Origin: Crocinitomicaceae bacterium
Lineage (GTDB): Bacteria > Bacteroidota > Bacteroidia > Flavobacteriales_D > Crocinitomicaceae
Assembly: GCA_044361115.1 (NCBI GenBank)
Contig: JBIKJH010000001.1
Location: forward strand, 228,593 to 292,592
DNA: 64,000 nucleotides
Direction: 5' to 3'
Shown one piece after another: positions 30,008 through 51,561 of the stretch. The notes under the pieces were generated by a model that saw nothing but the letters and a program-made list of their open reading frames with translations, was not told where the DNA came from and did not search any database. A program made the translations under genes and the position numbers. Each line of letters begins with the position of its first letter. The first letter of the stretch is position 1.

Positions 30008-30013
30008 CAAGAA

Positions 30014-30040
30014 AGTCTCCTTTTTAAGGGGGCTTTTTTT
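30014..30040 (+). terminator. terminator after tRNA-Lys
   Basis: agtctcc-tttttaa-gggggct (with G.U pairs) followed by T7. Confidence 0.6.
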
Positions 30041-30213
30041 GTTTAAATAATTCAGAATTGACACTACTTTCGCAGATTCGAATTCATTTGGGGAAATCAA
30101 AAAAACACAACTAAATCGGCAGCAAATAAGCCAGCAGAATTTTTAATCTATCTTGCTTGATGGAAAACAACTTAAACCTTGTTACCATTCTATTTAAGCC
30201 CTGTTTCATTTTG

Positions 30214-30462
30214 ATGAAAAGAACAAATAAAACAGCAAATTTTTTGACAATTAATAGGTTTAAAAATAACAAATTTCATGTCCATTTTTATTTGAATAAA
30301 CAAAGACATAAAAATGAACTTTATCCCCTCTACATTCACATCTATGTCGAAAGCGCTCGATCCGAAATTGCGAGCACTCAGCATGTAAATCTGAAGTCTT
30401 GGGAAAGCGTCAAAATCTGCCTAAAACCAAGCGTACAAAATGCAATTTGCTTGAACAGTTAA
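30214..30462 (+). pseudogene. truncated tyrosine integrase (Arm DNA-binding N-terminal region only)
   Basis: MKRTNKTANF..FHVHFYLNKQRHKNELYPLYIHIYVESARSEIASTQHVNLKSWES matches the pattern 'V.FYL.K....PLY..I....R.E..T......W' of Bacteroidetes integrase N-termini. It stops after 82 aa, so the catalytic domain is absent. Confidence 0.55.
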
Positions 30463-30579
30463 ATCCGCAATTTACAATGAAAACAGTGTAAACATTATAT
30501 TAAACTAGTAGCAAATTAACACCACGACATTGTATGGAGTAGTCGAGGAAAAAGGTCAGCGTCAAATATGATTTCCCCG

Positions 30580-30831
30580 CTATAAATTCCGGAATATTCT
30601 TTTTATCCCTGCTAAACAAACATATGTTGAAACAAGAAAAATTGCTAAGGTTAGTAAAACAATTATAATTTTTATCCAGTCAATCGATAATAAGTCTGCA
30701 AAAGCCAAACCTATGATTGCAAAAGTGATGGTAAAGAAAGCTAAAGCGATTGAAAAAAAAATCATTTTTTTGAAATGTTCATAGTCCATAATCCAATGGT
30801 TAATTTGAATTTGCAAAGGATGTGAAAGCAT
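30580..30831 (-). CDS. small membrane protein
   Basis: 83 aa with two hydrophobic helices. Confidence 0.45.
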   Translation of the reverse strand: MLSHPLQIQINHWIMDYEHFKKMIFFSIALAFFTITFAIIGLAFADLLSIDWIKIIIVLLTLAIFLVSTYVCLAGIKRIFRNL

Positions 30832-30847
30832 GGCGTAATTATTTGCT

Positions 30848-31066
30848 TCACTGTACTTTTTTAAGAAGAATCAAATTGCCTAATTCACTTTTATGAGCAC
30901 TTAAGGAGCTTGAATTGACATAGTAGTTCAAGGCATTCTTGATTTTGTTTTCCAAGGTGTGTAAAACAAAGAAAACGATCGCTATGAACAAAAGTATTAT
31001 GGATGCTTCCGCTTGTACAAGACTGGTAAGCACATAATAAAAAGTAGTTTCTTTCATAATCAACAT
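30848..31066 (-). CDS. small membrane protein
   Basis: 72 aa with one or two hydrophobic helices. It sits directly upstream of 30580..30831 on the same strand. Confidence 0.4.
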   Translation of the reverse strand: MLIMKETTFYYVLTSLVQAEASIILLFIAIVFFVLHTLENKIKNALNYYVNSSSLSAHKSELGNLILLKKVQ

Positions 31067-31185
31067 TCAGCTTTAAAGTGCGGGGAGGTACCACACAATA
31101 GCATCGTTTTTTTGTAAACCTTTTATTCCTTTGTCACAGATCCATCTGTTAATTCAACTGAGCTGCGAGACGCTAGGCATTTAAG

Positions 31186-32265
31186 TTAATGTGAAATAAT
31201 TAAGGTTCCAAGACATTGTTGCTCACTGAATAACAAATAATATCCATTTGATAGTTCTTGAACAGCTATTTGTTGATTCTCCATGGTACAAACAACTTCT
31301 TTAACGATTCTTCCGTCAAATGAAATAAGCTTGATTCTTTCTATATTTCCCTGGATTTGTATATAATCACTTGCTGGATTCGGAAAAAATGACGGCTGCA
31401 ATTGGCCTATTTCTGGAATAGTCAAATCAATACACGCAATATTCTGGTTATCAAGAAGTGTACTAAAACTTGAAAATACCGTTTGCCTCATTTTTTCTTT
31501 TTGTCCTTTTGTAAACATGTTTTGACATCCAAAATGATAAGACATGAAGTTCTCGATCATATCAGGTGCATCTTCATTCCAAAAGGCAAAATCACTGTTA
31601 CATGTATTAATTGTAATATCTGCTGGCGAGCATGTACTTGAGGGTCCTATATTTTCATTCGAACAGGGTGTGTCATTAATGTTATCTGAGTCAAACGTAT
31701 GTAACAACCCAAAATAATGTCCTACTTCATGTGTTGCTAAATTTGCAAAAATAGAGGCTGATGTTGAAAAGTCTTTATTGATAATACAACCCACTGGCTC
31801 ATTGACTACAAAAACCATATCACCTGGAATAATAGCGTAACCGCCCATAACTTCTGCGCTTTGAGGTCCCCAAGAATAAATCCAAAGATTGAAAAAATTT
31901 GTAACGTCCCATTTTGGCGAAATCATTGTAGGGAATGCAAAATCACCGAATAAACTTGTCATATTCGTTTGTGCTCTAACAATGCCGGAGGTAGACTGCC
32001 CATTAGGATCGAGTGTCGCTAAACAGAGCTTTATTTCCGTGTTGGCGCGTAAGGTGTCAAAAATTTCACGTGAAATCATGGAATTAGTAGATGCTCCTTT
32101 TAAATTTTCATTCACTTGAATCAAAAGTTGGTGAACCTCTGCATCGGTCATATTTTGAGATGCTTCATTGTAGACAATATGAACAACTGTTGGAATTGTC
32201 AGTTCTTGACCAATTGTATTAAAGGAAGCCAGTATTATTGCAAGAATAGATAATTTTCTAATCAT
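31186..32265 (-). CDS. M43-like zinc metalloprotease with a T9SS C-terminal domain
   Basis: Signal peptide, HEVGHYFGLLHTFD zincin motif, and C-terminal FFPNPASDYIQIQG...NGYYLL sorting domain. Confidence 0.82.
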   Translation of the reverse strand: MIRKLSILAIILASFNTIGQELTIPTVVHIVYNEASQNMTDAEVHQLLIQVNENLKGASTNSMISREIFDTLRANTEIKLCLATLDPNGQSTSGIVRAQTNMTSLFGDFAFPTMISPKWDVTNFFNLWIYSWGPQSAEVMGGYAIIPGDMVFVVNEPVGCIINKDFSTSASIFANLATHEVGHYFGLLHTFDSDNINDTPCSNENIGPSSTCSPADITINTCNSDFAFWNEDAPDMIENFMSYHFGCQNMFTKGQKEKMRQTVFSSFSTLLDNQNIACIDLTIPEIGQLQPSFFPNPASDYIQIQGNIERIKLISFDGRIVKEVVCTMENQQIAVQELSNGYYLLFSEQQCLGTLIISH

Positions 32266-32384
32266 CGGACTTAATTTTTAAATTATGTAAATAAGTTTCA
32301 CTTCAGTTAGTGCTTCATGGAGTGGTTCATTATTTATTCAGCCTATTCAGGCTACTTAGTAGGATTTAATTCAGTTGACCTAAC

Positions 32385-33257
32385 TTAAAACTTGTACTTT
32401 ATAATTGGATGATTTGATGATAATTTTCTATACACTAATACATTGAAATTATAATACGAATCTTTTCCATCTTTTCCGCGTGTTTCACCCGTGTAATCAA
32501 TGGTTTCATTTAAAGCTGGATTGGCTAAATAAGCCTCATTTGAATTTTGAAATAGATTTGGAGAACAATAGGTTCCGCCAACATCATCAATATAATCAGA
32601 GTAGGTTTTAAAATAAGTAGCTTCAACTCCTATTTGCCAGTACTTATTTACATTATACTTAGCACCAACTCCAAATGGAATGATTAATGTGTTTCGGCGG
32701 TATTTTGTTTTCCCGGGAATTCTACCTTGCCCTTCTGTACCAATGGGTTGAAGTGCCACCCATTTATCATCAACTTTTGCTTTTGGATTGAAAAAAGTGA
32801 CCCCTAAGCCTGAAAAAACATAAACACTTGATAAAAATTTTTTGGACGAAAATTGCTTATACGATTTATGTTTCGGTTGAAATAGACTAATATTCATTCT
32901 ACTTTCCAAACTGACGTAATTTGATCTAAAGTGTAAATTTCTATTTTGTCTAGAGGGCTCTTGTGTAAATTCGTCATTTCCTTTGAATATTCCGTAGGTT
33001 AAAAAAGAAGATGAACAAAACCACCGATTCAATTCAATCAAATATCCTGCTTTTAAATTAAAGGTAGTTGACCTAAAATCTAAATCGCGCAAACTATGCG
33101 CCTGTCCTAATTGATCCGAGCCACCCAAATCGCCAAGAAACTGATTCAAACCGGCACTTACTGCTATTTGTTTGTAGCCAGTGAAGTCATTAAATTGCGC
33201 TGTTAATTGATTTTGACAACACACGATAACGAATAAAATCCAAAAATACTTTTTCAA
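32385..33257 (-). CDS. outer-membrane beta-barrel protein (DUF6089-like)
   Basis: Signal peptide MKKYFWILFVIVCCQNQLTAQ, beta-strand periodicity, and a terminal aromatic residue (..IIKYKF). Confidence 0.65.
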   Translation of the reverse strand: MKKYFWILFVIVCCQNQLTAQFNDFTGYKQIAVSAGLNQFLGDLGGSDQLGQAHSLRDLDFRSTTFNLKAGYLIELNRWFCSSSFLTYGIFKGNDEFTQEPSRQNRNLHFRSNYVSLESRMNISLFQPKHKSYKQFSSKKFLSSVYVFSGLGVTFFNPKAKVDDKWVALQPIGTEGQGRIPGKTKYRRNTLIIPFGVGAKYNVNKYWQIGVEATYFKTYSDYIDDVGGTYCSPNLFQNSNEAYLANPALNETIDYTGETRGKDGKDSYYNFNVLVYRKLSSNHPIIKYKF

Positions 33258-33314: not shown

Positions 33315-33330
33315 TACCTAATCATCGGTA
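33315..33330. promoter_or_regulatory. island 7-2-7 palindrome, upstream of the OMP gene
   Basis: TACCTAA-TC-ATCGGTA, ~60 nt upstream of the ATG at 33257. Confidence 0.5.
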
Positions 33331-33351
33331 AAATCAACTATTTTTTTCTTT

Positions 33352-33372
33352 TACCTAGCAATAGGATGGGTA
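33352..33372. promoter_or_regulatory. island 7-2-7 palindrome plus an extra half-site, heading unit A
   Basis: TACCTAG-CA-ATAGGAT, overlapped by ATGGGTA. Confidence 0.5.
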
Positions 33373-33492
33373 TAAAAAGCCGATAACAATTAATTTTGGT
33401 CTGATTACATAGGACTGATCATATGAGTAGTAGTTAGGAGACATTGGTAACATTGTCGAAAATGGGTTCATTCATTTGAACCCATTTTTTTT
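33373..33492 (+). ncRNA. candidate small RNA, unit A (motif, then ~110 nt, then terminator)
   Basis: No ORF longer than 5 codons. It ends in aaatgggttc-attcattt-gaacccattt followed by a T-tract (33460-33492). Confidence 0.4.
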
Positions 33493-33729
33493 ATCCATTT
33501 AGCTCCGAAGCAACTGATTTGAAAATCGTTAAACGACATTCGAAAGAAACCATCAATTGAAGAATGCTTTACATAAAAAGAAACTCTTGAGAAGCGTTTG
33601 AATGAATATCTCCCTAAAATTGCGCGCATTTCAGAGGTGTAAATTGAACCGTAATAAATTATTGAAACCGAATTACAAGGATAACAGAACGTTCATAATT
33701 ACACCATCACCTAAAAATAGAATAGTTGC

Positions 33730-33903
33730 TCAAAGAAATACCAACACTGCTTCTACTGCAATAGTACCATTGGCTTCTAATTGCAATAATTGTCCAGTTT
33801 GAATTGTAGTAGGATGGTTTCCTACTTTTACTTGGGAAGCTGTCCTTGTTGTAAATACTCCTACTAGAAGAAGTAAGAGTAAATAATTGTTTGATTTGTT
33901 CCT
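33730..33903 (-). pseudogene. orphan 5' fragment of a paralogue of the glycine-rich gene (35230..36693)
   Basis: The reverse strand reads (AGG)NKSNNYLLLLLLVGVFTTRTASQVKVGNHPTTIQTGQLLQLEANG...stop. Compare MNKSNSYLFLLLLVGLFTTKAAAQVKIGNNPTTIGNSSLLELES. AGG replaces the ATG. Confidence 0.7.
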
Positions 33904-33917
33904 GCTATATTAGGTTA

Positions 33918-35162
33918 TTAATTCATTTCTTCTAGTACCCAAGTACTATTTGTATTCTTTAAATAATAAAGCGAAGGGGTACCTCTGGTAACATATTTTA
34001 AATAGCTATCTTTTTCCTCCGGGTGATAAAAAACTATGCTAGGATATTTATCTTCTTCAATTTGTGTACTTTCGGTTTCACACTTGGTACAAATGGCTAA
34101 CACCTTCTGTGTGGTATTTTTTAGTTGTTCTAATACCTCTTTACACGAACCACAACTGTTAGAATAAAAAAGTAGCACAATTTTATTCTCGTTTGTTTGA
34201 ATGAAGGATTTTATAGGTATTGGAATATCAAAAGGTTGTCCTATTTTAAAATTTTCATGCATTAAAAGTTTGGATTCCCATGCAATTAATTGATTTTCAC
34301 TAGCCTTTTTTAGTTGTAACATTTTTTTTAGAGCTATAACAAAATAAGTATTAGTACTATTATAATCGTAATTAGTATTAATCCAGTTATCTATAAAGAC
34401 TATGCCTTCTTCGGTTTTACCGATGTTAAAAAGTAAACTATCTATAAAACCTTCAAAATGGCTGAGCTCATTTTCATGCACTTTTTTCTGGTCTATCCAC
34501 CATTTATTTAAAACCCTATTCATCAATGGCGTATGAAATAAATAGGATTCATTGGGTGTAAGATTGTTCCAAAATGTACTTAAATAGACACTATTATCTG
34601 AATTTTCTAGATACATTAAATAATTATCCCATTGGGTACTGTTGTTTTTTATACTCTCCTCCAGCTCCTTTAGCTGTTGATTAATGTTTTGACCCAAAGT
34701 ATCTTTAAGGTTAAACAAACCGTAATCTTTGAAAACCAATTGATTATCGATATTAAATTTTAGCTGTTGCTGGAGTAAATTCCATTTAAATTTCGATTGG
34801 TTAAGTACAAACGATTGCGGCGCATTATCAAAAAACACATAATTGTTAGATGGATTCCAAAAAATAGTGTGTGTATTTTCATTACTGTCTATCACTACAT
34901 CTATAAAAGAAGATTCTTGAAGTATATGATCCTTAGCATAATAAATAGAGTAGATGCCCTCCTTAAGGGTTCGAACATCTAATATTGCTTTACCCTCCGT
35001 TACATTGGCTTGACTAAGGGGTTGATTTTTGGTATTGTTTGGGTAATATGAAAACAAATACACATGTCCTTCCTTAAAAGCAGGAGGTAAATACACTGTT
35101 ATTTGAGCCCTTGCAGACACCAAACACACAAAGCATAGCGCTATGTAAATTAACTTTTTCAT
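33918..35162 (-). CDS. secreted thioredoxin-fold protein (CGSC) with an N-terminal domain of unknown function
   Basis: Signal peptide MKKLIYIALCFVCLVSARAQ. The C-terminal region LLFYSNSCGSCKEVLEQL...TPSLYYL is thioredoxin-like. Confidence 0.75.
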   Translation of the reverse strand: MKKLIYIALCFVCLVSARAQITVYLPPAFKEGHVYLFSYYPNNTKNQPLSQANVTEGKAILDVRTLKEGIYSIYYAKDHILQESSFIDVVIDSNENTHTIFWNPSNNYVFFDNAPQSFVLNQSKFKWNLLQQQLKFNIDNQLVFKDYGLFNLKDTLGQNINQQLKELEESIKNNSTQWDNYLMYLENSDNSVYLSTFWNNLTPNESYLFHTPLMNRVLNKWWIDQKKVHENELSHFEGFIDSLLFNIGKTEEGIVFIDNWINTNYDYNSTNTYFVIALKKMLQLKKASENQLIAWESKLLMHENFKIGQPFDIPIPIKSFIQTNENKIVLLFYSNSCGSCKEVLEQLKNTTQKVLAICTKCETESTQIEEDKYPSIVFYHPEEKDSYLKYVTRGTPSLYYLKNTNSTWVLEEMN

Positions 35163-35176
35163 ATTCTGTTTTAGTA

Positions 35177-35218
35177 AACAGCAACACCCCATTTCTTTGT
35201 GAATGGGGTGTTACTGTT
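35177..35218 (-). terminator. intercistronic hairpin (15-bp stem, one mismatch)
   Basis: aacagcaacacccca-tttctttgtgaa-tggggtgttactgtt, between the stop at 35230 and the start at 35162. There is no clear U-tract. Confidence 0.4.
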
Positions 35219-35229
35219 TGTATTTTATA

Positions 35230-36693
35230 TTAAGGGCAGGTATAAGTAATTACAACCCTTCCATCACCACCAGAACCTCCAGTTGAATCATTACAAGCAG
35301 AATTTATTCCCCCTCCAGCTCCTGAGCCACCTGGTTGTGCACCATTACCTCCATTTCCACTTGAAGATGTACCACCAGCCCCTCCTGAAGGACCCGCACC
35401 AGCTACTCCTCCTCTTCCATTGACATTACAAGATGAAAAAGTGCCATTTACACCACTAGCTCCATTAGTATTTACATCTCCTCCTGTAGCCGTAACAGCA
35501 ACACCGCCTCCAAAAGGAGTAGTACCTTCACCGCCACGACCGCCACGTGCAGTTATGGTGTTAGAGGCATAAGTAATAATAGAATTGCCCCCTGCAACTC
35601 CATCCGCTGTAGTTATACCTCCACTACCTCCATTACCTACAGTATAGCTTATGCTAGTATTACCTGATGAAACCGTATAAAGTTTTAGGGTATAAGCACC
35701 ACTACCCCCTGAACCTCCGATTTGATCGGGTGCACAACCCCCGCAAGCGCCACCGCCACCACCGCCAGCGCCATACGCTTCTGCTTGGAATGATACGATA
35801 TCTGTGCCAGGAATTGTAAGAGTGCCTGAACCTGATGAATTGAAGGTTCTCCTGTAGTCATTAACTGTATATAGTTTTCCAACTCTATAATTGGTGCCAG
35901 TTTTTAAAGCATGTATGTAAACATTACCTGTATTTACTCCTGTTAGCAAACCAGTAGATGAGTTAATAGTAGCATTACCGGTATTATTCGATACCCAACT
36001 AGACAAACCTGTTCCTGTAGCAGTTTGTGTACAGGTCGTTAAAATAGTTTTACTTAAGGTAGGCGTTACAGTTACATCTAAGGTATTTGAACAGGTTAAC
36101 CCATTCTTTACAAAAGTAGCAGTTACCACCCCTGTTGATGGCACTGTGCCGCCTAGGGTGTAGGTAATGGTGAGCGAACCACCACCTGGTATTGCAGTAG
36201 TGGTAGAAGGAGATACAGAAGCGATGGTTAAACCCGATGCCCCTGATAATGTTACATCAGATGTAGCAGGTGTAATAGAACCCTCAAACAAAGAATTGTT
36301 TACTAACGTTACTTTAAAAGATTTAGCTCCTAAAATACTTACAGACTCCCCAGGTGCATAAGTACCCAGAAAACCATTGGTGTTAGGATCGCAGTTGGCA
36401 GAAATTGCACTTGGACCACCCCCACTTAGGCAACCCGACCATGCTCCGTTTTCATAACTTTTTGCGCATTTAGACGACATGTCATACACAAACATTCCAT
36501 CTACAGGGTTTGCTATAGCACTGGTATTTGCAACTCTGGGTAATACTAGCCCTTTGTTGGTGCTTTCCAGTTCTAACAGCGAACTGTTGCCGATGGTGGT
36601 AGGGTTGTTACCAATTTTTACTTGGGCAGCAGCCTTTGTTGTAAATAATCCTACTAATAGTAGTAAGAATAGATAACTGTTTGATTTGTTCAT
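35230..36693 (-). CDS. secreted protein with a C-terminal glycine-rich domain (phage-fibre-associated type); distant member of the island N-terminal family
   Basis: Signal peptide, then QVKIGNNPTTIGNSSLLELESTNKGLVLPRV. C-terminal AYGAGGGGGGACGG..GGSGGSGAY..VGNGGSGG..ARGGRGGEG..GGAGG..GGSGGDGRVVITYTCP. Confidence 0.8.
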   Translation of the reverse strand: MNKSNSYLFLLLLVGLFTTKAAAQVKIGNNPTTIGNSSLLELESTNKGLVLPRVANTSAIANPVDGMFVYDMSSKCAKSYENGAWSGCLSGGGPSAISANCDPNTNGFLGTYAPGESVSILGAKSFKVTLVNNSLFEGSITPATSDVTLSGASGLTIASVSPSTTTAIPGGGSLTITYTLGGTVPSTGVVTATFVKNGLTCSNTLDVTVTPTLSKTILTTCTQTATGTGLSSWVSNNTGNATINSSTGLLTGVNTGNVYIHALKTGTNYRVGKLYTVNDYRRTFNSSGSGTLTIPGTDIVSFQAEAYGAGGGGGGACGGCAPDQIGGSGGSGAYTLKLYTVSSGNTSISYTVGNGGSGGITTADGVAGGNSIITYASNTITARGGRGGEGTTPFGGGVAVTATGGDVNTNGASGVNGTFSSCNVNGRGGVAGAGPSGGAGGTSSSGNGGNGAQPGGSGAGGGINSACNDSTGGSGGDGRVVITYTCP

Positions 36694-36726
36694 AATATAT
36701 TATTTATTTTTAGTTTAAGTTTTTTT

Positions 36727-36799
36727 TCTTTGTGTTCTTTGTGTTCTTTGTGTTCTTTGTGTTCTTTGTGTTCATTGTGTTCTTTTTGTCTTTGTAGTG
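36727..36799. repeat. 9-bp tandem repeat (gtgttcttt, about 6-7 units)
   Basis: tctttgtgttctttgtgttctttgtgttctttgtgttctttgtgttcattgtgttcttt... It directly abuts the homology breakpoint of the neighbouring gene fragment. Confidence 0.85.
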
Positions 36800-36845
36800 T
36801 TTTTTATTTACCAAGGAGGCACTGAGGGCCCTGAGATTTTTAGTT

Positions 36846-37033
36846 TTTAGTTCATTTCCTGTTAAGCGAGGAGCCATAATACCATCTGCAATGGTCGTAG
36901 CTCAAGGGTCTCCAACAACCTGAAGCCTTGTATGCGGACTTATCGTTCCTTCGCCAACTTGTGCATGTACTTGTGCGCTGAAAAAGAGTGCACTGAAAAA
37001 GAGAATGTTTGTTTTCATAAAGTTGTATTTCAT
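36846..37033 (-). pseudogene. orphan 5' fragment of a tail-fibre-like paralogue (in-frame stop, truncated)
   Basis: MKYNFMKTNILFFSALFFSAQVHAQVGEGTISPHTRLQVVGDP*ATTIADGIMAPRLTGNELK. There are long identical nucleotide runs with 38684-38800, for example ttcatttcctgttaagcgaggagccataat. Confidence 0.8.
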
Positions 37034-37063
37034 ATATTATTTGGTTTGCTTTTATTTACTAAT

Positions 37064-37101
37064 TCAAAGAAATCGAATCTAAGCTGATTCGATTTCTTTG
37101 A
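37064..37101 (-). terminator. 14-bp perfect hairpin 22 nt after the stop of the 37123 gene
   Basis: caaagaaatcgaat-ctaagctg-attcgatttctttg. There is no U-tract on either strand. Confidence 0.45.
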
Positions 37102-37122
37102 AATGGGATTAAAAAAATGGGT

Positions 37123-38853: not shown

Positions 38854-38958
38854 GAAAAATTGAAATAGAGTGAATAAATGGACCACGTTGTTTAATCGTT
38901 ATTTGCTTAACCAATTCAAATAATGCGTGAAATTAGCTGGGTCTGCCTTAGGGGGGTA

Positions 38959-44119: not shown

Positions 44120-44160
44120 CCTATAAAATTTAAATTATCAACTAACGGTTGAGTCGTGTT

Positions 44161-45627
44161 TTACTCTATTTTCGAAATTTTGAAAGATTCAGAATGATTG
44201 TCATCAAATACGACGAGGTAATACAAGCCATTTGCGAATTCACTCATATCAATTGTTGTTTGAAATTGATCTTCCTGCAAGCTTATTTTTTCGATTGTTT
44301 GGCCATTTCCGTTGATTATTTGATAGCTAGAAATTGGGAATTCATTTGAAGCAAGGTTGAGTGCGTTGATTACTGGATTTGGAAAAACCTGAAAGACGTG
44401 TTCCTGGGCATCATCAATGCTGACTGAACGAATAGCTGAAAAGGTAAAATTTCCATCAAAATCTGTTTGTTTCAAGCGGTAATAACTTAAACCAGAATAC
44501 GGATCGATATCCTCACTTTCGTAGGCTCTTGTTCCTTGTGAAAAGCCAGCTCCATCAATCGTTGACACGAAATCCCAATCTTCACCATTTTGGGTGCGCT
44601 CTATGGTGAAATAGTCGTTGTTGATTTCGGAATACGTTTTCCATGTTAAATCCACTTTTCTTAACGCTTTATTGTAGACTGCATCGAAGTTCAACAGGGT
44701 AATTGGCAATGGATTGGCAGAGGTTGAGCTCGCTAAGGTAAAAGGGCTGAACGAAGTTACAGCGCTAGTTGTTTCAATTGTACCAGCAGTAGTATTTCCT
44801 GATGTTCCGCCATTGCCTAGATCCAACCACGTAGTTCCATCCCACTTTGCCACACGAAGGTCGTTAATGGCAGTTACACCACACGATGTATTTGAATCCC
44901 AAGATAAGTGCACCTTCACATTGGAAGAACCGTTGGTTCGATTCAACATCCAGTATTCACAACTCGAAATATGATCTAAAGTAAGGTCAAGTGAATTGTC
45001 GGCATAGGTTGGACCTGGATCTGCGTGGATATACGAACATTCAAACCGGTCTGTCGAATTGCTGGGTGCAGTTATAGAAACTTCTCGTACATACGTCCCA
45101 TCACCAACAGGAAATGTAAATGCCGTATTTCCAATTTTAGCAACCGTACCAACGATATGAGAATCATTGGAAGAATTGAAATGGGCTGCTGTATTGCGAA
45201 AAACCAGCTGATTATTGCCTGTTACAATATTTCCATTAACAAACGTAATTTCTTTAGAAACTTGTAAATCATTATTCGAAATCGGTGAAATTCCACTTGA
45301 AATGTTATTCATTTCAATATCGGAATAAAGCGAAAAAAAGCAATCGATTAGAATTCCGTTCGCATCGATTGTTTGTGTGTTTGTACCACGGAATTCGATT
45401 TCTCCATCTCCCGTCACACTTGAATTTGAATTGAACGAAATATTATCCGATTCAATGCGTAAAACACCATCATTATCCAACACACCTTGTTGATTAGTTA
45501 GTATATCAGTTTCTCCTATTGTTACAGTTGCGTTTGGCCCAATATACATGTCTGTGCCTAAGAAGAATTGCCCATTCGAAATGAATGTCATAAGCACAAG
45601 GCTTATAGTACTAAGTAACTTTTTCAT
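44161..45627 (-). CDS. secreted protein with a T9SS C-terminal sorting domain
   Basis: Signal peptide MKKLLSTISLVLMTFISNGQ. C-terminal VFPNPVINALNLAS...NGLYYLVVFDDNHSESFKISKIE. Confidence 0.8.
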   Translation of the reverse strand: MKKLLSTISLVLMTFISNGQFFLGTDMYIGPNATVTIGETDILTNQQGVLDNDGVLRIESDNISFNSNSSVTGDGEIEFRGTNTQTIDANGILIDCFFSLYSDIEMNNISSGISPISNNDLQVSKEITFVNGNIVTGNNQLVFRNTAAHFNSSNDSHIVGTVAKIGNTAFTFPVGDGTYVREVSITAPSNSTDRFECSYIHADPGPTYADNSLDLTLDHISSCEYWMLNRTNGSSNVKVHLSWDSNTSCGVTAINDLRVAKWDGTTWLDLGNGGTSGNTTAGTIETTSAVTSFSPFTLASSTSANPLPITLLNFDAVYNKALRKVDLTWKTYSEINNDYFTIERTQNGEDWDFVSTIDGAGFSQGTRAYESEDIDPYSGLSYYRLKQTDFDGNFTFSAIRSVSIDDAQEHVFQVFPNPVINALNLASNEFPISSYQIINGNGQTIEKISLQEDQFQTTIDMSEFANGLYYLVVFDDNHSESFKISKIE

Positions 45628-45655: not shown

Positions 45656-46819
45656 TTAATTCCCTAGATAAATAAAAGTGTTTACACTTAAGCTCTTTGG
45701 TGTAATGTCTAATGCGGTACCACTGCCTCCCAAAGGAACATTATGGGTATGACCTGGTAATGCACTGCCTGAAAAGGTGTGCGTATGATTTGGTTCTGCA
45801 TCTGTCGAAACTAAATTTCCAGATGCACCGTCCGAAAAAACACCAGGGGTTGGTCCACCTGTTACACCTGTCCTATACCTAATAAAAGCACTCAAATTAT
45901 GCGAATGCGCACCGCCGCCGCCGATAGTACCGCTTGGGGTACCTGCAGTAACTGAAGCTGCTGTTAAATTTATATTGGGTAAATTGGCTTGCGTGATTGT
46001 TTTACTGTTTGATCCACTTACACTTCCCAGCGCTGTTCCATTTTGAATTAAACAAGAGTTTGTTGCATCAGGCAAGTTTGTAACAATACCAAGCGCCGTA
46101 GCTCGGATTTGCTGATCTGCAGAAAGTGTAGACTTTACTCTACCGTCTAGCTTGACCCATCCGCCATGATCGACAGTTTGGATACCCGTTTTAATATCAC
46201 CATAGGTCATATTGGGAACATTTACCCAGTTTGGTGCACTTCCAGCACCGTTACTTACCAAGACCTGACCAGCAGTGCCAGCGGTATTATTTGGCATCAA
46301 TGCTCCCGAGAATTTAACATTTCCAGTAAGATCTAATTTTTCTGTTGGTGTAGATGTGCCGATACCAATTCGGTTATTTGTTCCATCAAGAAATAAGGTT
46401 CCGGCATCGAAATTCACGGTATTTGTTACATTGACCGTTCTTCCACTTCCAATTGTTCCGTTAGTCGTATAAATATTGTCAGTACTAGAACCTGTAACGA
46501 TTCGTTGCCAAACACTGCCATCGTAATAAAAATAGCCTGTCGAATTCACGTTCGTTGTTTTCGCAGAGGCAGAAGTAACTGCAGCAGAAACATAAACGAT
46601 TGTTCCCCTGTGATCTGACCCGTAAACAGCATCTTTCGCTTTCAGTTCGTTTCCTGTCAATGTGGGTGCAATCATTCCATCGGCGATTGTACTGTTTGTA
46701 GGCGCTCCTTTTACGTCTAAGGTTGTTGCTGGAGATGTTGTGCCAATCCCTACTTGTGAGAAGGCATTAAATTGTACACTGATTACTAGTGCTGCAATTG
46801 GTAAAAATTTTTTAAACAT
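45656..46819 (-). CDS. secreted protein with the shared N-terminal module and a phage tail-collar (MdpB-like) C-terminal domain (P3)
   Basis: N-terminal QVGIGTTSPATTL..LTGNELKAKDAVYGS..NIYTTNGTIGSGRTV..DGTNNRIGIGT. C-terminal GDIKTG...GWVKLDGR...LPD...HSH..HTHTF..GHTHNV...LSVNTFIYLGN. Confidence 0.8.
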   Translation of the reverse strand: MFKKFLPIAALVISVQFNAFSQVGIGTTSPATTLDVKGAPTNSTIADGMIAPTLTGNELKAKDAVYGSDHRGTIVYVSAAVTSASAKTTNVNSTGYFYYDGSVWQRIVTGSSTDNIYTTNGTIGSGRTVNVTNTVNFDAGTLFLDGTNNRIGIGTSTPTEKLDLTGNVKFSGALMPNNTAGTAGQVLVSNGAGSAPNWVNVPNMTYGDIKTGIQTVDHGGWVKLDGRVKSTLSADQQIRATALGIVTNLPDATNSCLIQNGTALGSVSGSNSKTITQANLPNINLTAASVTAGTPSGTIGGGGAHSHNLSAFIRYRTGVTGGPTPGVFSDGASGNLVSTDAEPNHTHTFSGSALPGHTHNVPLGGSGTALDITPKSLSVNTFIYLGN

Positions 46820-46910: not shown

Positions 46911-46926
46911 TACCTACTGCTAGGTA
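46911..46926. promoter_or_regulatory. island 7-2-7 palindrome upstream of the P3-P5-P2 operon
   Basis: TACCTAC-TG-CTAGGTA, ~95 nt upstream of the ATG at 46819. It is near-perfectly symmetric. Confidence 0.55.
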
Positions 46927-47426
46927 TATTTTTAACAAATGCAAAAAAAGTTTTTGCCCAAAAATTTATCTAGGAAAGTAGTTCACTTTATTTTAGTGAA
47001 ATTGCATATGGATTTTGAAGTGTTAAGATGATACGTTATTTAATACATTGAGCGAAATAGCCAAACCAATTAAAATGTTGCACAAGCGCTACATAATTCT
47101 GTAATATGTTTTCTTCTTTTTTGAAGCATTTCAATGTCATAGGTTCGTTTAAAAGAGGAATAAATGGAAAAAAAGAGAATCCATTTGAATATTTTCAATG
47201 ACAACTTTTGAATTTAAGTCGTTGCAACATAAAGTAACATCGCCAATTGGCAAAAACACCAATTGATCGATCAGCAAGTTGCATCCCATTTTAAATCGTT
47301 TTTGAATCAATTTTGTTCCTTCATTTACCTTACCATTTTTGAGGTTGGATTCTAGGATTGATGAAATCACCTTGCTGCATAAAACCTAAGTGTAGGATAG
47401 TTAACTCATTCCATTTTGACATGGTA

Positions 47427-47547
47427 AAATAAAAAAGCCCACCTTTTACTCGAGGTGGGCTCCAAAGTAATCTTAATTACTTGTACCTAACTTTACTAAC
47501 CACTACACTAGCATACAATTTTAAGGACTCTCAACAATAAACTATTA
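47427..47547 (-). ncRNA. candidate small RNA, unit B
   Basis: Downstream (minus strand) of the palindrome at 47548-47563. It has no meaningful ORF and ends in agcccacc-N10-ggtgggct followed by TTTTTTATTTT on the minus strand (47427-47461). Confidence 0.45.
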
Positions 47548-47563
47548 TACCTATTAGTAGGTT
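47548..47563. promoter_or_regulatory. island 7-2-7 palindrome heading unit B
   Basis: TACCTAT-TA-GTAGGTT. Confidence 0.5.
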
Positions 47564-47731: not shown

Positions 47732-47747
47732 TACCTACCAATGGGTA
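47732..47747. promoter_or_regulatory. island 7-2-7 palindrome upstream of the S8 protease
   Basis: TACCTAC-CA-ATGGGTA, ending 44 nt before the ATG at 47791. The right half is exactly AKRRGTA. Confidence 0.55.
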
Positions 47748-47790: not shown

Positions 47791-49893
47791 ATGAAGTTAA
47801 GTTGGTTTACGTTTGTCTTTTTATTAATTGGTCATCAACTCTATTGTCAAGAAAATTATACAATTTGGGTAACAAGTAAAAGTGATAATTTAGCGTCCAA
47901 TCGCCCAAAAGAATTCGATCATTATTCTTTGATAAAACTATCGAAAGCATTTCCATCCTCGAAAATGGCAAACTTGCAAAAGGTTTATGAACTTGAATTT
48001 TCAACGAATGCTCAGGCCCTTATTGATTCAATAAATAGTGGCGTTTACACCGATTTATATTATGCTGTTCAAGCGCCCGAACTAGCGCCGCTGTTTGTGC
48101 CCAATGATTATGCCTTGGTTAGTGGACCAAATTATGCGCTGGGATTGATAAATGCGTCGAGTGCTTGGGAGCTGACCCATGGTGACAGTTTAATTCGCAT
48201 TGGTATTTTGGATACTAATTATGATCTAAATCATGAGGATTTGCAAACTAAAATTGCTTTTATCGAACCTACGAACACCAATTCACAAACAGTTCATGGA
48301 ACGGCCGTTGCGATAACAGCTGCGGGAGGAACAAATAACAATGTTGGTATCAGTTCAATTGGTTTTAACACAAAAGTTGAATTGCGGTCAATGAATTATA
48401 ATCAGATTTTGGAGGCTTCGTATTCAGGCGCCAAGGTAATTAATTTAAGTTGGGCTTCTGGATGTGCATATAATCAATATTGCCAGGATATAATTGATGA
48501 GGCCTATTTCAATGGATCAATAATTGTTGCTGCGGCAGGAAACGGAAGCACATGTGGAGGAGCAACAAACTATGTTTATCCAGCAAGTTTTAATCATGTT
48601 TTTTCAGTAAGTAGTATTGGACCTTTGAATAATCATGAGCGAACCATCGGAATTCCGAGTACAACACATCAACACAATGATAGTGTAGATCTTTGTGCTC
48701 CTGGGTATGATGTATTATTGTCTACTGCAAACGGTGTTTACTTAACTGGGAATGGAACTTCCTTTGCGGCACCATTTGTATCTGGTACAATTGCGCTTAT
48801 GCTCGCGGTTAATCCATGTTTAAATTTTGAGCAAATCGATGAGATTTTTAAATTATCCTCTTTTGATTTGGATACCATTAATCCGAGTTATTCTGGCCTT
48901 TTGGGTCATGGCCGGTTGGATGCAGGTTTAGCTGTTTCGTTGGCGGCCAATTATTCAACCATTCCCTTTAACTACCACGAATCATTTAGTTGTTCAGATT
49001 CAAGCTATACTGTACTAATTGACAATGTAGGAGCTTCAAATTACGACGTTGTTTGGGAGGATGGAACTATTGGTAATACTTTAACAGCGGTTTCTGAAGG
49101 TTCACTAGTACGGGGGGAAATAATATCAACAGAAGGCTGCTTCTCAACATTCGAACTAAGTTTAGATTCAATTGCGCCCTTGGAAATTATAACTGAAAAA
49201 ACGGATGTTACGTGCTTTGGTCAAAACAGCGCTAGTATTTCTGCTGAACTGAACTCATCAGATATTGCCTATAGCTGGAGTAACGGAGAAACTGGATTAC
49301 ACTTGAATAATTTATATGCTGGAAACTATACTTTAACCGTTTACCGATATGAGGATTGTATCGATAGTATAGAATTTACAATTACACAACCTGAAGAAAT
49401 TGTAATTGACATTGCTATTGAACAAACTAGCCTAGCGGGTCCCATTACACTTCATTCAATTATCAATGGCGGTGTACCTGACTATACGTACAGCTGGAAT
49501 ACGGGTGAAACGGACAGCCTACTTCAAGGCGTTTTAGGAGGATTTTATGAACTTGAAGTGACTGATTTTAAGGGTTGTACAGATAGCAAAAATATATACG
49601 TCCCAGCTCATACATTTAACGTCCTGAATAGCCCAAATGCGAACAATTACGCTCTTATAGAGAATACTGTTGTAAATAACGAGTTGTATTATTATGACAA
49701 ACGCTTGTATTTCAGTTCACTTGACATAGAAGCGTATTCTTTGTACAATTCAATTGGTCAAAAAGTGCAAATCAACGTTGAGAAAAACGATAATTTCTTC
49801 GATTTATCTGGTCTAGTCAGTGGTAACTATTTCGTTTTTATATTCTTAAAGAATGGAAAGCAAATTTCAATGCCAATTCTTGTTTACGAATAA
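47791..49893 (+). CDS. S8 subtilisin-family peptidase with SprB repeats and a T9SS C-terminal domain
   Basis: Catalytic triad contexts GILDTN, HGTAVA and GTSFAAPFVSG. SprB-type repeats (TCFGQNSASI..YSWSNGETG..AGNYTLTV). A CTD at the end. Confidence 0.88.
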   Translation: MKLSWFTFVFLLIGHQLYCQENYTIWVTSKSDNLASNRPKEFDHYSLIKLSKAFPSSKMANLQKVYELEFSTNAQALIDSINSGVYTDLYYAVQAPELAPLFVPNDYALVSGPNYALGLINASSAWELTHGDSLIRIGILDTNYDLNHEDLQTKIAFIEPTNTNSQTVHGTAVAITAAGGTNNNVGISSIGFNTKVELRSMNYNQILEASYSGAKVINLSWASGCAYNQYCQDIIDEAYFNGSIIVAAAGNGSTCGGATNYVYPASFNHVFSVSSIGPLNNHERTIGIPSTTHQHNDSVDLCAPGYDVLLSTANGVYLTGNGTSFAAPFVSGTIALMLAVNPCLNFEQIDEIFKLSSFDLDTINPSYSGLLGHGRLDAGLAVSLAANYSTIPFNYHESFSCSDSSYTVLIDNVGASNYDVVWEDGTIGNTLTAVSEGSLVRGEIISTEGCFSTFELSLDSIAPLEIITEKTDVTCFGQNSASISAELNSSDIAYSWSNGETGLHLNNLYAGNYTLTVYRYEDCIDSIEFTITQPEEIVIDIAIEQTSLAGPITLHSIINGGVPDYTYSWNTGETDSLLQGVLGGFYELEVTDFKGCTDSKNIYVPAHTFNVLNSPNANNYALIENTVVNNELYYYDKRLYFSSLDIEAYSLYNSIGQKVQINVEKNDNFFDLSGLVSGNYFVFIFLKNGKQISMPILVYE

Positions 49894-49965
49894 CAATAAA
49901 AAATATTCAAGTCTTTATCTAATGGAATTCATTTCGGTGAAAAAGAGTGCAAATACTTTATGAAA

Positions 49966-49982
49966 TACCCAATGATTAGGTA
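49966..49982. promoter_or_regulatory. island palindrome (7-3-7 variant) heading unit C
   Basis: TACCCAA-TGA-TTAGGTA. Confidence 0.45.
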
Positions 49983-50096
49983 GATCAATACTTTGCTTTT
50001 TAAGCTAACTTTATATGAGGGACTTATGGTTTCAGTTCCCTTTTATGTTTTTCAATAACAGGTGTTGAAGATTTCAATGCCTGTTATTCTTTTTCT
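49983..50096 (+). ncRNA. candidate small RNA, unit C
   Basis: About 110 nt whose only ORF is a 17-codon one not conserved in the other units. It ends in aataacagg-N17-cctgttatt followed by cttttt (50054-50096). Confidence 0.4.
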
Positions 50097-50203
50097 GTAA
50101 GCCACCACATCTGCTAAGAAATGTTTATAAAGTCTTTTTCCATTTCGTAAACACAACTCATATTTTCCTTTAACAGCGTGAAATTGGGCTATTATTACCA
50201 AAA

Positions 50204-51136
50204 TTACGAAAGGTGTAATTCAACCATTTTCATATAGAATTTTAGGCATTCTTTAATATGAATAAGAATCATATATTCATTGTTTATTGGTTGGATAGTG
50301 ATCGTGAAGTTTTCATAATTGATGTATTTACTAGATGTAGATTTTAGACCCGGTAGGGATAAGGTTGAAAAGAAATCTTTGTACAACTTGTTGATTTCGA
50401 TGCTATTTAATGGGCTCGACACAATAGCAGTAATAAAAACTCCACTGCATCTATCCAGGTACATACAATTTGTAAAATGATCAATTTGATAAGAAAACTC
50501 GTGTTTTCTTTTTGAAACAGCTTTTAAACGATAGAATACTTCCCTTAGTTCATTTAACACAATATTCTCAGCTGCTCTTGTATCGAATGCATCATTTTTG
50601 GTTTCCACTTGTGGATAAAATGTAGAAAAGTATTCTTTACCAACTACCACTTTCATGGAATTGATTTTCACAAGTGATTCAGCCAATGGACTAAAAAGAA
50701 AATGCCCGGATCCAGCAATTGGATAAGGTAATGTTACTTTAGAAAATTGGTTATTTTGACTAGCTTGGTGATTTTGAAGGTTGTAATCATACCATGATGC
50801 AAATGTAAAAGCCCTACTCATGTCAATTATTTTAATTTGTTTGTCTCTTGAATCGATTGTTGCAAAGTTTTTGCGGACTGAATCTGGATTAGCACATACC
50901 AAGAGTGTATCCAATTTTTCAAAATTAAATTTGGATCTAAATTTGAAATTTCGATCGACTTGGTCTTTTTCTCTAACATCTTTTTCAAAAAAATCCTTTT
51001 CTAATGCTCTTTTGTCAATTTGTTGATCGATTACACATTGAATGGTATCAAGATTTTTTATGCGTAATAAGGAATTGAATAATTTTTTCGATTGCTGATT
51101 CTTGGATAAGAATAAGCCTACTTTTCTGCGTGGCAT
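50204..51136 (-). CDS. hypothetical protein; possible degenerate ArgC-like (N-acetyl-gamma-glutamyl-phosphate reductase fold) pseudoenzyme
   Basis: It looks collinear with ArgC landmarks recalled from memory: LLVCANPDS / IKIIDMSRAF (cf. iDLSaDfR), LPYPIAGSGHFLFSPLAE (cf. NPGCYpT..L.L.PL), and SGVFITAIV (cf. RGI.aT). The GxxGxxG motif and the catalytic Cys are missing. Confidence 0.6.
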   Translation of the reverse strand: MPRRKVGLFLSKNQQSKKLFNSLLRIKNLDTIQCVIDQQIDKRALEKDFFEKDVREKDQVDRNFKFRSKFNFEKLDTLLVCANPDSVRKNFATIDSRDKQIKIIDMSRAFTFASWYDYNLQNHQASQNNQFSKVTLPYPIAGSGHFLFSPLAESLVKINSMKVVVGKEYFSTFYPQVETKNDAFDTRAAENIVLNELREVFYRLKAVSKRKHEFSYQIDHFTNCMYLDRCSGVFITAIVSSPLNSIEINKLYKDFFSTLSLPGLKSTSSKYINYENFTITIQPINNEYMILIHIKECLKFYMKMVELHLS

Positions 51137-51200
51137 GTATTGATTTTTTTAGTGTACTAATTTCAACCTCAAAAATCCTTTTATTTGCTTAATCCATGTA

Positions 51201-51216
51201 TACCTACTTGTAGGAA
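51201..51216. promoter_or_regulatory. island 7-2-7 palindrome upstream of the ArgC-like gene
   Basis: TACCTAC-TT-GTAGGAA, ~65 nt upstream of the ATG at 51136. Confidence 0.5.
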
Positions 51217-51312
51217 GATTCTAACTAATTTGAAAAAATCTACATTCTTGAGTTGATCTAGCAAATAAAAGAATGAACAACTGAAGTAATTAAGCGAAAG
51301 TATCTTTACCGA

Positions 51313-51461
51313 ATAAAAAAGTCTCTGAACATTAACTATCCAGAGACTTTGCCGAAAATTAACTGATTCGTCAGTATGCCTTACCTAAACTTAACAATTG
51401 TAATTACGAACCATTCATAATTAATTGGTTCAAACTTCATGTTATTTGAGTTATTTGAGAC
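51313..51461 (-). ncRNA. candidate small RNA, unit D
   Basis: Downstream (minus strand) of the palindrome at 51462-51477. It ends in agtctctg-N13-cagagact followed by TTTTTTATT on the minus strand (51313-51348). The only ORF is a 19-codon one. Confidence 0.45.
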
Positions 51462-51477
51462 CTACCTATTTATAGGG
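51462..51477. promoter_or_regulatory. island 7-2-7 palindrome heading unit D
   Basis: TACCTAT-TT-ATAGGGA. Confidence 0.5.
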
Positions 51478-51561
51478 AATTTTAAAAATAAGGATCTGAC
51501 TATCTGCTCAGACACTACAATAATCCGAGCACCAGGATAGAATTCTAAGCATAAAAATAGA

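Follow-up and report, generated by a model that had tools for sequence, protein, structure and literature searches.

A candidate NarL-type two-component regulon of secreted proteins and small RNA-like units in a variable region next to tRNA-Lys of a freshwater Crocinitomicaceae bacterium

Introduction

What holds together the block of genes that follows a tRNA-Lys gene in an uncultured freshwater member of the Flavobacteriales? We analyzed a stretch of 64 kb from a Crocinitomicaceae bacterium (GenBank assembly GCA_044361115.1, contig JBIKJH010000001.1, positions 228,593 to 292,592), here called the window, in which about 21 kb between tRNA-Lys and a methyltransferase gene differ in character from the flanks. 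The block encodes a sensor histidine kinase with a NarL/FixJ-family regulator, four proteins resembling phage tail fibres, proteins with type IX secretion system (T9SS) sorting domains, two proteases and four short units without a usable open reading frame (ORF). A preliminary description had taken it for a degraded tRNA-Lys island forming one self-contained system. In our analysis, the block is best explained as a regulon that a single lineage-specific two-component system controls locally, in a fast-changing region, a reading to which we assign a probability of roughly two in three.

Near-identical contigs were recovered in several lake metagenomes, where exact-protein look-ups with the shikimate kinase AroK and the regulator returned the same population only. 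In a scan of a genome collection, the best genome match of aroK was a Crocinitomicaceae metagenome-assembled genome (MAG) at 46% identity, i.e., only distant relatives were found there, and in a first metagenome scan the kinase used as query had no match. Comparisons were drawn with contigs of sister species, L091/L092 (kinase 87% identical) and L097/L098 (83% nucleotide identity), and with contigs of two congeners, L093 and L094.

Operator and promoter geometry

A 16-bp palindrome, TACCTA-N4-TAGGTA, emerged from a family of direct repeats (D8); a search for exact palindromes of 12 to 18 nt found no recurrent one. At up to two mismatches the window holds 10 copies versus 1.09 expected, a number reached by 0 of 100 shuffles. 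Nine of the 10 copies are intergenic and all are located within 33.3 to 51.5 kb. The 45.8 kb of the window outside this interval contain no copy at this stringency, in line with the earlier observation that the motif is not seen elsewhere in the window. Weaker copies are present at 39355, 47383 and 49967. The operator scan covered these 64 kb of the genome and a few related contigs.

In 9 of 11 sites, a Bacteroidota sigma-A -7 box (TAnnTTTG, or nAnnTTTG; at least 5/6 positions matching) is found 23 to 24 nt downstream of the palindrome, always on the side of the gene or terminator-ended unit. With a background rate of the box of 1.3% per position, the P value for 9 of 11 sites is about 3.5e-13 when one orientation is counted and 1.5e-10 when either is allowed. 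This fixed link of the palindrome to a promoter box is new in this analysis. A composite scan for operator plus box, whose threshold of 14 is not discriminating (shuffles average 5.5 matches), returned in the window only palindrome sites with well-matched boxes on the transcribed side; beyond the window, it found the orthologous places in L091 and one non-orthologous match in L094. A sigma-70 promoter scan was uninformative (65 matches versus 75 expected); promoters of Bacteroidota call for the TAnnTTTG model. In Flavobacterium psychrophilum, the -7 box is located at -12 to -5 (PMC9723704), which together with the spacing of 23 to 24 nt would put the operator between roughly -52 and -36 and its centre close to -44. 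The promoter listing shows no TTTG element at -33 behind the operators.

The leftmost operator (33315-33330, minus strand) precedes the gene for an outer-membrane protein (OMP) and, behind it, an M43 protease; its box CAACTTTG lies 24 nt downstream, and the site is identical in L091/L092. Next to it, the operator of the first small unit, u1 (33352-33367, plus strand; TAATTTTG 23 nt downstream), is also conserved in L091/L092. The site of fibre gene 2 (38959-38974, minus strand) has a weaker box, TAATTTCA, 23 nt downstream and is part of a segment absent from L091. Two abutting operators (39339-39370, plus strand), both kept in L091/L092, stand before the kinase gene. The first alone has the spacing expected for activation, with TAGTTTTG 24 nt downstream. 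The second overlaps the promoter spacer; it would extend over about -35 to -20, where it could set a ceiling on autoinduction. A perfect palindrome (46911-46926, minus strand; TAATTTTG 23 nt downstream) precedes the operon of fibre 4, a T9SS partner protein and fibre 3, followed by the operators of u2 (47548-47563, minus strand; TAAAATTG, 24 nt) and of the S8 protease gene (47732-47747, plus strand; CAACTTTG, 24 nt). The remaining sites belong to u3 (49967-49982, plus strand; degenerate, nearer to the consensus in L097), the gene for a 310-aa protein (51201-51216, minus strand; GATTTTTG, 23 nt; conserved in L097/L098) and u4 (51463-51478, minus strand; a perfect palindrome in L097/L098). Two operators are nearer to the consensus in L097/L098 than in the window. 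Ten units are preceded by the palindrome, the four ORF-less ones included, which largely bears out the earlier statement that it stands before nearly every transcription unit; three genes have no site of their own.

In alignments with sister species at 83 to 90% nucleotide identity, operator and box positions are conserved in 102 of 108 cases (94%) versus 757 of 1045 other intergenic positions (72%; Fisher P = 2.5e-8). Apart from operator and box, promoter regions of protein-coding targets do not resemble one another, which indicates that the motif is a shared regulatory signal and not a copied cassette. Since the palindrome is found at a fixed distance to the -7 box before the kinase/regulator operon, before protease, OMP, fibre and 310-aa genes and before the small units, we regard the block as one regulatory unit.

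The two-component system

The sensor histidine kinase (39405-41369, plus strand) is composed of a signal or transmembrane segment, a periplasmic tetratricopeptide repeat (TPR) region, a further transmembrane segment, an H-box of the HisKA_3 type and a HATPase_c domain. TPR_12 (E 3.4e-12) and HATPase_c (E 2.4e-5) were matched in Pfam together with a weak HisKA_3 hit under the cutoff (E 0.0027). The H-box SQELHDGVANNL is intact in the translation, and the kinase core is spanned by the models MctS (E 2.7e-19), UhpB (E 3.1e-18), LiaS and NarX. With a phospho-acceptor domain carrying the H-box, followed by HATPase_c, the protein belongs to the HisKA_3 class. Its homologues show 100, 90, 87, 87 and 85% identity, and the next one only 28%.

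The regulator (41381-42049, plus strand) harbors a REC domain at residues 5 to 116 (PF00072, E 2.6e-19) and a GerE domain at residues 159 to 214 (PF00196, E 5.6e-15). The receiver residues are intact in the translation (DD at 8-9, the phospho-acceptor Asp within FTDLNMPD, Thr within VLTMY and Lys within YLHKS), and matches to the NarL, GacA/UvrY, RcsB, EvgA and FixJ models all remain below the equivalog cutoffs. The pairing of a TPR-HisKA_3 kinase with a NarL-type regulator, already recognized in the preliminary description, is thereby confirmed at the domain level. No other intact DNA-binding protein was found in the block, and the regulator has the operator in front of its own operon. It is presumed to bind the operator as a dimer on the inverted repeat, and we infer from the promoter geometry that it activates rather than represses its promoters.

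The NarL heptamer consensus is TACYYMT, and the half-site of the window, TACCTAn, fits it. As a dimer, NarL recognizes two inverted heptamers with a 2-bp gap (7-2-7 sites, e.g., TACCCCTAAAGGGGTA), and it activates napF and yeaR from 7-2-7 sites at -40 to -49 and -38 to -47 (PMC4549865). The 16-bp repeat of the window shares the outer TACC...GGTA with TACCCCTAAAGGGGTA, and its position at about -44 resembles that of the activating sites of napF and yeaR (PMC4549865). The combination of a HisKA_3-class kinase with a REC-GerE regulator is likewise that of NarX/NarL of Escherichia coli. Where NarX has a nitrate-sensing P-box module and a HAMP linker, the periplasmic part of the window sensor is a TPR array. 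The two regulators have different recognition helices, the promoters are of the Bacteroidota sigma-A type (-7 TAnnTTTG), and the predicted targets are secreted proteins and candidate small RNAs, whereas those of NarL are respiratory. With 22.7 bits for NarX (cutoff 578) and 84.7 bits for NarL (cutoff 250), the relationship is one of family membership, not of orthology.

Could the palindrome instead be the site of an unlinked factor, or of a larger, genome-wide regulon of the same regulator, with the clustering reflecting the concentration of secreted-protein genes? Bacteroidota possess large numbers of proteins with a LuxR-type helix-turn-helix (HTH), many of which recognize inverted repeats of a similar kind, and a scan of 64 kb, with 30 kb of left and 12 kb of right flank, is a small sample of a genome. 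The distribution of sites nevertheless makes this explanation unlikely: beyond the empty 45.8 kb of the window, about 10 kb of left flank in the sister species contain none, and L093 and L094 have one lone match each (at 3378 and 83, respectively; two mismatches, in orthologous syntenic flank, missed by the composite scan). In addition, a conserved tandem site is located directly before the kinase/regulator operon, and regulator and operators were retained together in the sister species.

Small units without reading frames

Four terminator-ended units are located at 33404-33496 (u1, plus strand, about 90 nt, its start placed from the -7 box), 47426-47518 (u2, minus strand), 50019-50098 (u3, plus strand) and 51310-51419 (u4, minus strand). 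In each, operator and -7 box are followed by a body of 80 to 110 nt and a strong intrinsic terminator, and all fold better than shuffled sequences (z = -2.0 to -5.6; u1, -3.1; u3, -4.6). Unpaired GUUAGG(U/A) with a short hairpin behind it is common to u1 (GUUAGG, small hairpin, terminator), u2 (GUUAGGU), u4 (GUUUAGGUAAGG) and the L091 units; u2 aligns with u4 and with one of the L091 units, and u3 is small RNA-like as well. The ORFs within the units are trivial or not conserved: u1 has no usable one, and a 17-codon ORF in u3 is not conserved in L097. Identity to the sister species amounts to 80% for u1 (L091), 86% for u3 and 93% for u4 (both L097) compared with 68% for the remaining intergenic bases of these three alignments. 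The units are best read as regulator-dependent small RNAs, which would probably act as base-pairing regulators. Rfam returned no family for any of them, and a search for the seed complement (ACCTAAC) revealed no target pattern.

An additional operator, -7 box and small RNA-like unit, paralogous to u4, is present in L091 (6625-6795) between the integrase stub and a gene for a 161-aa protein, where the window is about 200 nt shorter.

The motif and the ORF-less units might also be debris, i.e., copies of a promoter-leader-terminator cassette or stumps of deleted genes that were spread by the recombination shuffling the fibre genes and have no function as regulatory RNA. The paralogy of u2, u4 and the extra L091 unit (76% in blastn), the abundance of gene fragments in the region and the lack of an Rfam match or a convincing target all point in this direction. 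We consider it very unlikely, given that the unit bodies are 80 to 93% conserved versus 68% for other intergenic sequence, while the sequence just outside operators and terminators diverged freely. Moreover, the terminator is intact in each unit, and the promoters of the protein-coding targets have only operator and box in common.

The arrangement resembles the GacS/GacA (BarA/UvrY)-Rsm/Csr cascade, in which a NarL/FixJ regulator has a palindromic site before several paralogous small RNA genes. Units of small RNA type with operator and box at fixed spacing number four in the window, with a fifth in L091, and the regulator scores 90.5 bits against the UvrY/SirA/GacA model, which is below the cutoff. 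In contrast to the GacA-Rsm cascade, the window operator also directly precedes protein-coding operons, and its sequence differs from the GacA box. Unlike Rsm RNAs, u1 to u4 have no repeated GGA hairpin loops and instead show one small hairpin, a terminator and the unpaired GUUAGGU. No CsrA/RsmA gene was found in the window; to our knowledge, CsrA is not typical of Bacteroidota.

Another parallel is Rfp18 of F. psychrophilum, a small structured, terminator-ended RNA linked to the expression of metalloproteases and an adhesin (PMC9723704). The small units of the window similarly share their putative regulon with M43 and S8 proteases and fibre-like proteins. However, no relationship of Rfp18 to u1 to u4 was found by sequence or Rfam, and the dedicated two-component operator predicted for the window units is not described for Rfp18 (PMC9723704).

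Predicted protein-coding targets

The first predicted target unit comprises an OMP beta-barrel protein (32385-33257, minus strand), matching OMP_b-brl (E 1.1e-5) and DUF6089 (E 1.5e-4) slightly under the cutoff in both cases, and the M43 metalloprotease (31186-32265, minus strand; PF05572, E 3e-12) with a T9SS C-terminal domain (PF18962, Por_Secre_tail, E 2.6e-8). The M43 gene has no operator of its own and is probably cotranscribed with the OMP gene. The S8 subtilase (47791-49893, plus strand; PF00082, E 3.3e-27) is probably T9SS cargo, with a sorting domain (TIGR04183, E 7e-4) that scores 19.5 bits and thus below the threshold of 23. Of the three T9SS cargo proteins named in the preliminary description, the M43 protease and a 488-aa protein are secured by PF18962, and the S8 protease stays under the TIGR04183 threshold.

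The product of the 310-aa gene (50204-51136, minus strand) is a cytoplasmic, lineage-restricted orphan that belongs to no family. It is represented by 3 clusters in 5.8 billion proteins and by 1 further cluster (33% identity) among 1.84 billion representatives. Its AlphaFold2 model is unusable (pLDDT 37.6), and PDB sequence searches with this protein, the T9SS partner and fibre 4 were empty or insignificant. The ArgC-like identity assigned to it before was rejected, as a partial match to Semialdhyde_dh was the sole hit (15.4 bits, E 0.025) and no PDB relative was found, whereas the OMP (if slightly under cutoff) and the thioredoxin-like protein named along with it were recovered.

This thioredoxin-like secreted protein (33918-35192, minus strand; Thioredoxin_2 and Thioredoxin, E ~1e-4) is encoded downstream of fibre 1, in a segment that L091 does not have. 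Secreted thioredoxin/AhpC-like proteins recur at variable loci, namely, at 33918-35192 in the window, 12902-14293 in L091, 14183-15022 in L093, 10707-11498 in L094 and 20884-22049 in L102. They are only distantly related (19% between window and L091), and the recurrence may just reflect how common such proteins are in Bacteroidota. Between u2 and the fibre 4 promoter, a 73-aa ORF (47149-47370) with a weak match to a SPASM domain (E 0.0014) may be a gene remnant; the degenerate operator copy at 47383 is located immediately upstream of it. A reading of the block as a defence island was discarded, as PADLOC gave only generic HTH and subtilase matches and no known anti-phage system.

A two-component system tied to T9SS-related genes is also known from PorX/PorY in Bacteroidota. 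We take PorX not to be a GerE-type regulator, and, unlike PorXY, the GerE-type regulator of the window appears to act directly on cargo genes. In Porphyromonas gingivalis, PorXY is reported to control T9SS machinery genes via the extracytoplasmic function sigma factor SigP (PMC7712824).

Fibre-like proteins and their T9SS partner

The four fibre-like genes are all encoded on the minus strand. Fibre 2 (37123-38853) has an S74 chaperone domain (PF13884, E 5.5e-12), a coiled-coil tail and a match to phrog_9942. Fibre 3 (42596-44119) also carries S74 (PF13884, E 4.9e-11) and matches 22 PHROG tail-fibre families, and its homologues, annotated as "tail fiber domain-containing," number >2,600. Fibre 4 (45656-46819) has PHROG matches in its N-terminal part and a C terminus with HxH motifs, which in our view is reminiscent of phage tail-collar tips and has no Pfam match. 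Fibre 1 (35230-36693) ends in a Gly-rich C terminus (Gly_rich_2, E 1e-6; phrog_863, E 5.8e-21) and, like fibre 4, has no Peptidase_S74 domain. All four proteins, fibre 2 included, carry PF26696 (PTL_trimer) in precomputed annotation, and Sec signal peptides are seen in the translations. The preliminary description had called them four secreted paralogues with swapped C termini. This applies to fibres 2, 3 and 4, which alone share an N-terminal domain of ~170 aa (~55% identity) and differ in their tips, but not to fibre 1, whose N terminus is different and shorter.

Between fibres 4 and 3, a protein of 488 aa (44161-45627, minus strand) carries a T9SS sorting domain (PF18962, E 3.3e-10) and no other known domain. 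Two other lineages have full-length homologues of this partner, again with fibre genes as direct neighbours: Dyadobacter (30% identity, E 7e-38) and the marine bacterium AO1-C (28%, E 4e-39); the loci with PTL_trimer/S74 fibre neighbours are L099 10001-12846, L101 10001-12846 and L102 8256-14490. Divergently upstream of the pair, the Dyadobacter locus encodes a histidine kinase (Y_Y_Y) together with three GerE regulators. The recurrence of the fibre and T9SS-partner pair suggests a functional partnership, in which the fibres are possibly anchored at the cell surface via the partner, although the latter is speculation. A scan of viral contigs with the partner alignment matched only the generic domain preceding the C-terminal sorting domain.

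Strong PHROG tail-fibre matches, S74 chaperone domains and a nearby integrase stub raise the possibility that the fibre genes were left behind by a prophage or tailocin, with the rest being unrelated neighbouring cargo. We find this hardly credible. As noted before, the block contains no capsid, terminase, sheath or baseplate match in Pfam or PHROGs, nor is there one for a tube gene, so that tail-fibre-type matches are all that remains of the prophage or tailocin candidate, which was rejected. The Sec signal peptides, the membership in a family with >2,600 chromosomal members from Bacteroidota and other groups, and the pairing with a T9SS protein in three lineages point to a cellular context. 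The proteins resemble bacterial S74 "tail fiber domain-containing proteins," with PF13884 on fibres 2 and 3 and PF26696 on all four, and share with phage fibres the design of a conserved N-terminal domain with exchangeable C-terminal tips. Chromosomal location, signal peptides, putative two-component control and the T9SS partner are traits that set the window proteins apart. A literature search on PF26696/PTL_trimer and cellular S74 fibre proteins in Bacteroidetes found no paper on their function.

The three orphan 5' fragments reported earlier were all recovered by tblastn on the minus strand, each just downstream of a full-length gene: one of the fibre 1 type (33772-33900; aa 2-44, 67% identity, E 2.8e-9; repeat D4), one of the fibre 2/3/4 type (36836-37018; aa 1-61, 57 to 66% identity, E to 8e-16; repeat D3) and a weak one (42465-42551; fibre 3 aa 1-29, 48%, E 8e-4). 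In L096, a contig of another population, the 3' end of the partner gene and a fibre 3-type upstream region are joined to a fibre 2 body (94%), followed by a fragment and fibre 1 (L096 1-3481, compared with window 35579-38786 and 43459-44342). This hybrid is what would be expected from recombination between the directly repeated conserved 5' ends. Such an event would eliminate the stretch between these ends, with fibre 3, regulator and kinase. Upstream of fibre 1, 33 nt from its start codon, the 9-bp unit TTCTTTGTG is repeated in tandem (36726-36779), with 6 copies in the window and in L087, 4 in L086 and 5 in L096. The tract may be expression-tuning or phase-variable.

Boundaries and origin of the block

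The left landmark of the variable region is tRNA-Lys(ttt) (29935-30008, plus strand), identified with ARAGORN and Rfam (RF00005, 72.8 bits). The order aroK-tRNA-Lys is common to the sister species (L091) and the distant Crocinitomicaceae MAG L006. The integrase N-terminal remnant of 82 aa described 3' of the tRNA was confirmed (30214-30462, plus strand; ATG at 30214, ORF 30157-30462). It consists of an Arm DNA-binding domain matching positions 1 to 59 of 87 of Arm-DNA-bind_5 (PF17293, E 4.7e-8), and Pfam matched no part of a tyrosine integrase catalytic domain. A 74-aa stub is present at the same position in L091/L092 (E 1.7e-11). On the right, a methyltransferase (51562-52209, minus strand; Pfam) is the first conserved gene of the flank and marks the boundary.

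In the window, a 1-nt insertion after an A-run, near 30856, breaks the gene for a 161-aa membrane protein behind the integrase stub (30580-31066, minus strand) into ORFs of 83 and 72 aa. The gene is unbroken in L001 (a 99.6%-identical contig), L091 and L092, and the break represents a frameshift of recent date or, alternatively, an error in the assembly.

In L091/L092, aroK, tRNA-Lys, the integrase stub, the 161-aa gene, M43, OMP and u1 are followed directly by kinase and regulator; the segment 33498-39226 of the window, with the thioredoxin-like gene, fibre 1, a fragment, fibre 2 and the site at 38959, is absent. After the regulator, these contigs continue with a thioredoxin-like gene other than that of the window and with the gene for a Fib_succ_major protein. 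At the other end, L097/L098 retained S8, u3, the 310-aa gene, u4 and the methyltransferase together with all three operators. By contrast, L093/L094 are syntenic with the window from 62556 to 51565 (methyltransferase), where synteny stops and other T9SS cargo follows without any palindrome or composite site, although their divergence is about equal to that of the block-carrying congener (L097/L098). L094 additionally has an insertion of 3.4 kb (6630-10000) between the orthologues of window 52259-52573 and 51562-52209, which encodes a thioredoxin_5/FAD-binding fusion and an aminotransferase. The comparison of relatives for presence or absence of the block thus gave a mixed result: the right junction is polymorphic and 33498-39226 is absent in L091/L092, but the left core is conserved.

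Does the block represent a horizontally acquired integrative island that entered at tRNA-Lys as a unit, later lost its integrase and persists as a self-contained module? The tRNA followed by an integrase stub, the different cargo of L093/L094 at the methyltransferase junction despite a divergence like that of the block-bearing congener, the distant MAG with aroK-tRNA-Lys and nothing syntenic past the tRNA, and the lineage restriction of kinase and 310-aa protein would all fit such an origin. So would the k-mer atypicality of the block, which was confirmed: the tetranucleotide correlation drops from 0.95-0.98 in the flanks to 0.79-0.93. However, the strongest deviation, at 32.5-40 kb, coincides with the Gly/Thr/Ser-rich fibre genes and the lineage-variable segment, so that the composition signal is confounded by the amino acid bias of the fibres. 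There is no attR copy of the tRNA 3' end, as the longest repeats of the tRNA region elsewhere in the window are 10 to 15 nt, at chance level, with none near 51.5 kb. Among the relatives examined, no empty site with tRNA-Lys directly joined to the methyltransferase was found. Left and right gene order are kept in sister species, which means that any acquisition predates them, and the content varies piecewise, not as a block. Overall, we regard acquisition as a unit as possible, though doubtful.

In comparison with tRNA-linked integrative islands, the location 3' of a tRNA, the integrase remnant, the atypical composition and the varying content agree, whereas an intact integrase and a flanking direct repeat are absent, the ends are conserved and variation is piecewise. 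Of the degraded tRNA-Lys island of the preliminary description, variable content and atypical composition hold, and acquisition as one block has the conserved ends and the missing attR and empty site against it. As judged from these alignments, the region between tRNA-Lys and methyltransferase is long-lived and piecewise variable and not the product of a recent block insertion; it may have originated by integration in the distant past.

Discussion

We propose that the block is a local regulon with the following mode of action. The TPR region of the kinase would sense a periplasmic signal, leading to phosphorylation of the NarL/FixJ regulator, whose dimer would bind the 7-2-7-type site TACCTA-N4-TAGGTA. 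From a site near -44, in a promoter with no -33 element, RNA polymerase would be recruited by class-II-like activation. The regulator's own operon would be one target, with the second abutting site possibly limiting its expression. Further predicted targets are the OMP-M43 unit, fibre 2 (and possibly the genes behind it, for fibre 1 and the thioredoxin-like protein), the fibre 4-partner-fibre 3 operon, the S8 protease, the 310-aa orphan and the four terminator-ended RNAs of ~80 to 110 nt. The output would be an altered set of secreted and surface proteins, comprising proteases and phage-fibre-like trimers with exchangeable tips, and the fibre genes may diversify through recombination at their conserved 5' ends.

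Several points weigh against this proposal. The recognition helix of the regulator is unlike that of NarL, so that the likeness of the operators would be no proof of binding by this regulator, and the predicted start sites are placed from a consensus. The scan was confined to 64 kb and a few related contigs, and the operator may occur elsewhere, too. The tenth site, at 38959, has a poor box (TAATTTCA, only 4/6) at the same spacing. The genes for M43, fibre 1 and the thioredoxin-like protein have no site of their own; they are probably operon-internal. Part of the recurrence of the motif stems from duplication, as u2, u4 and the L091 unit are paralogous. Testing u1 to u4 against 47 start regions with RNAduplex gave best z-scores of about -3, which is chance level, and no target. 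Finally, the distant kinase homologue P0006 (28%) is an orphan kinase in unrelated context and lends no wider support to the pairing.

Of the earlier view of a self-contained system, the idea of one regulatory unit is upheld by the conserved operator at fixed distance to the -7 box, and the island label is only loosely justified. The suggestion, in the same description, of a system of an undescribed kind did not stand up: the operator is of the NarL 7-2-7 type in a class-II-like position (PMC4549865), and the proteins come from large known families.

A more far-reaching interpretation, which is rather improbable in our judgment, is that the fibres and the 488-aa T9SS protein constitute an undescribed cell-surface fibre apparatus of Bacteroidota. 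In such an apparatus, the T9SS protein may be the anchor and the ~170-aa N-terminal domain a docking module, comparable to fibres on a baseplate, while the S74-matured, collar/HxH and Gly-rich tips may bind different targets. Recombination at the 5' ends may reshuffle the repertoire, the 9-bp tract may tune expression, and in this lineage the set, together with the proteases and the four candidate small RNAs, may be gated by one NarL-type operator.

Regulation in Bacteroidota is poorly mapped outside a few model species, and the organism studied here is known only from freshwater metagenomes. Sequence analysis nevertheless yielded a near-complete, compact candidate regulon with sensor, regulator, operator, promoter geometry, an autoregulatory site and about ten target units, four candidate small RNAs among them. 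This regulon is built from known kinds of parts and is not a new kind of system, and current understanding is not overturned by it. It suggests, however, that NarL-type class-II activation may work with the unusual sigma-A promoters of the phylum, with the operator replacing the missing -33 element. The pairing of fibres with a T9SS partner and their cassette-like recombination offer a lead on a very large protein family without a known cellular role.

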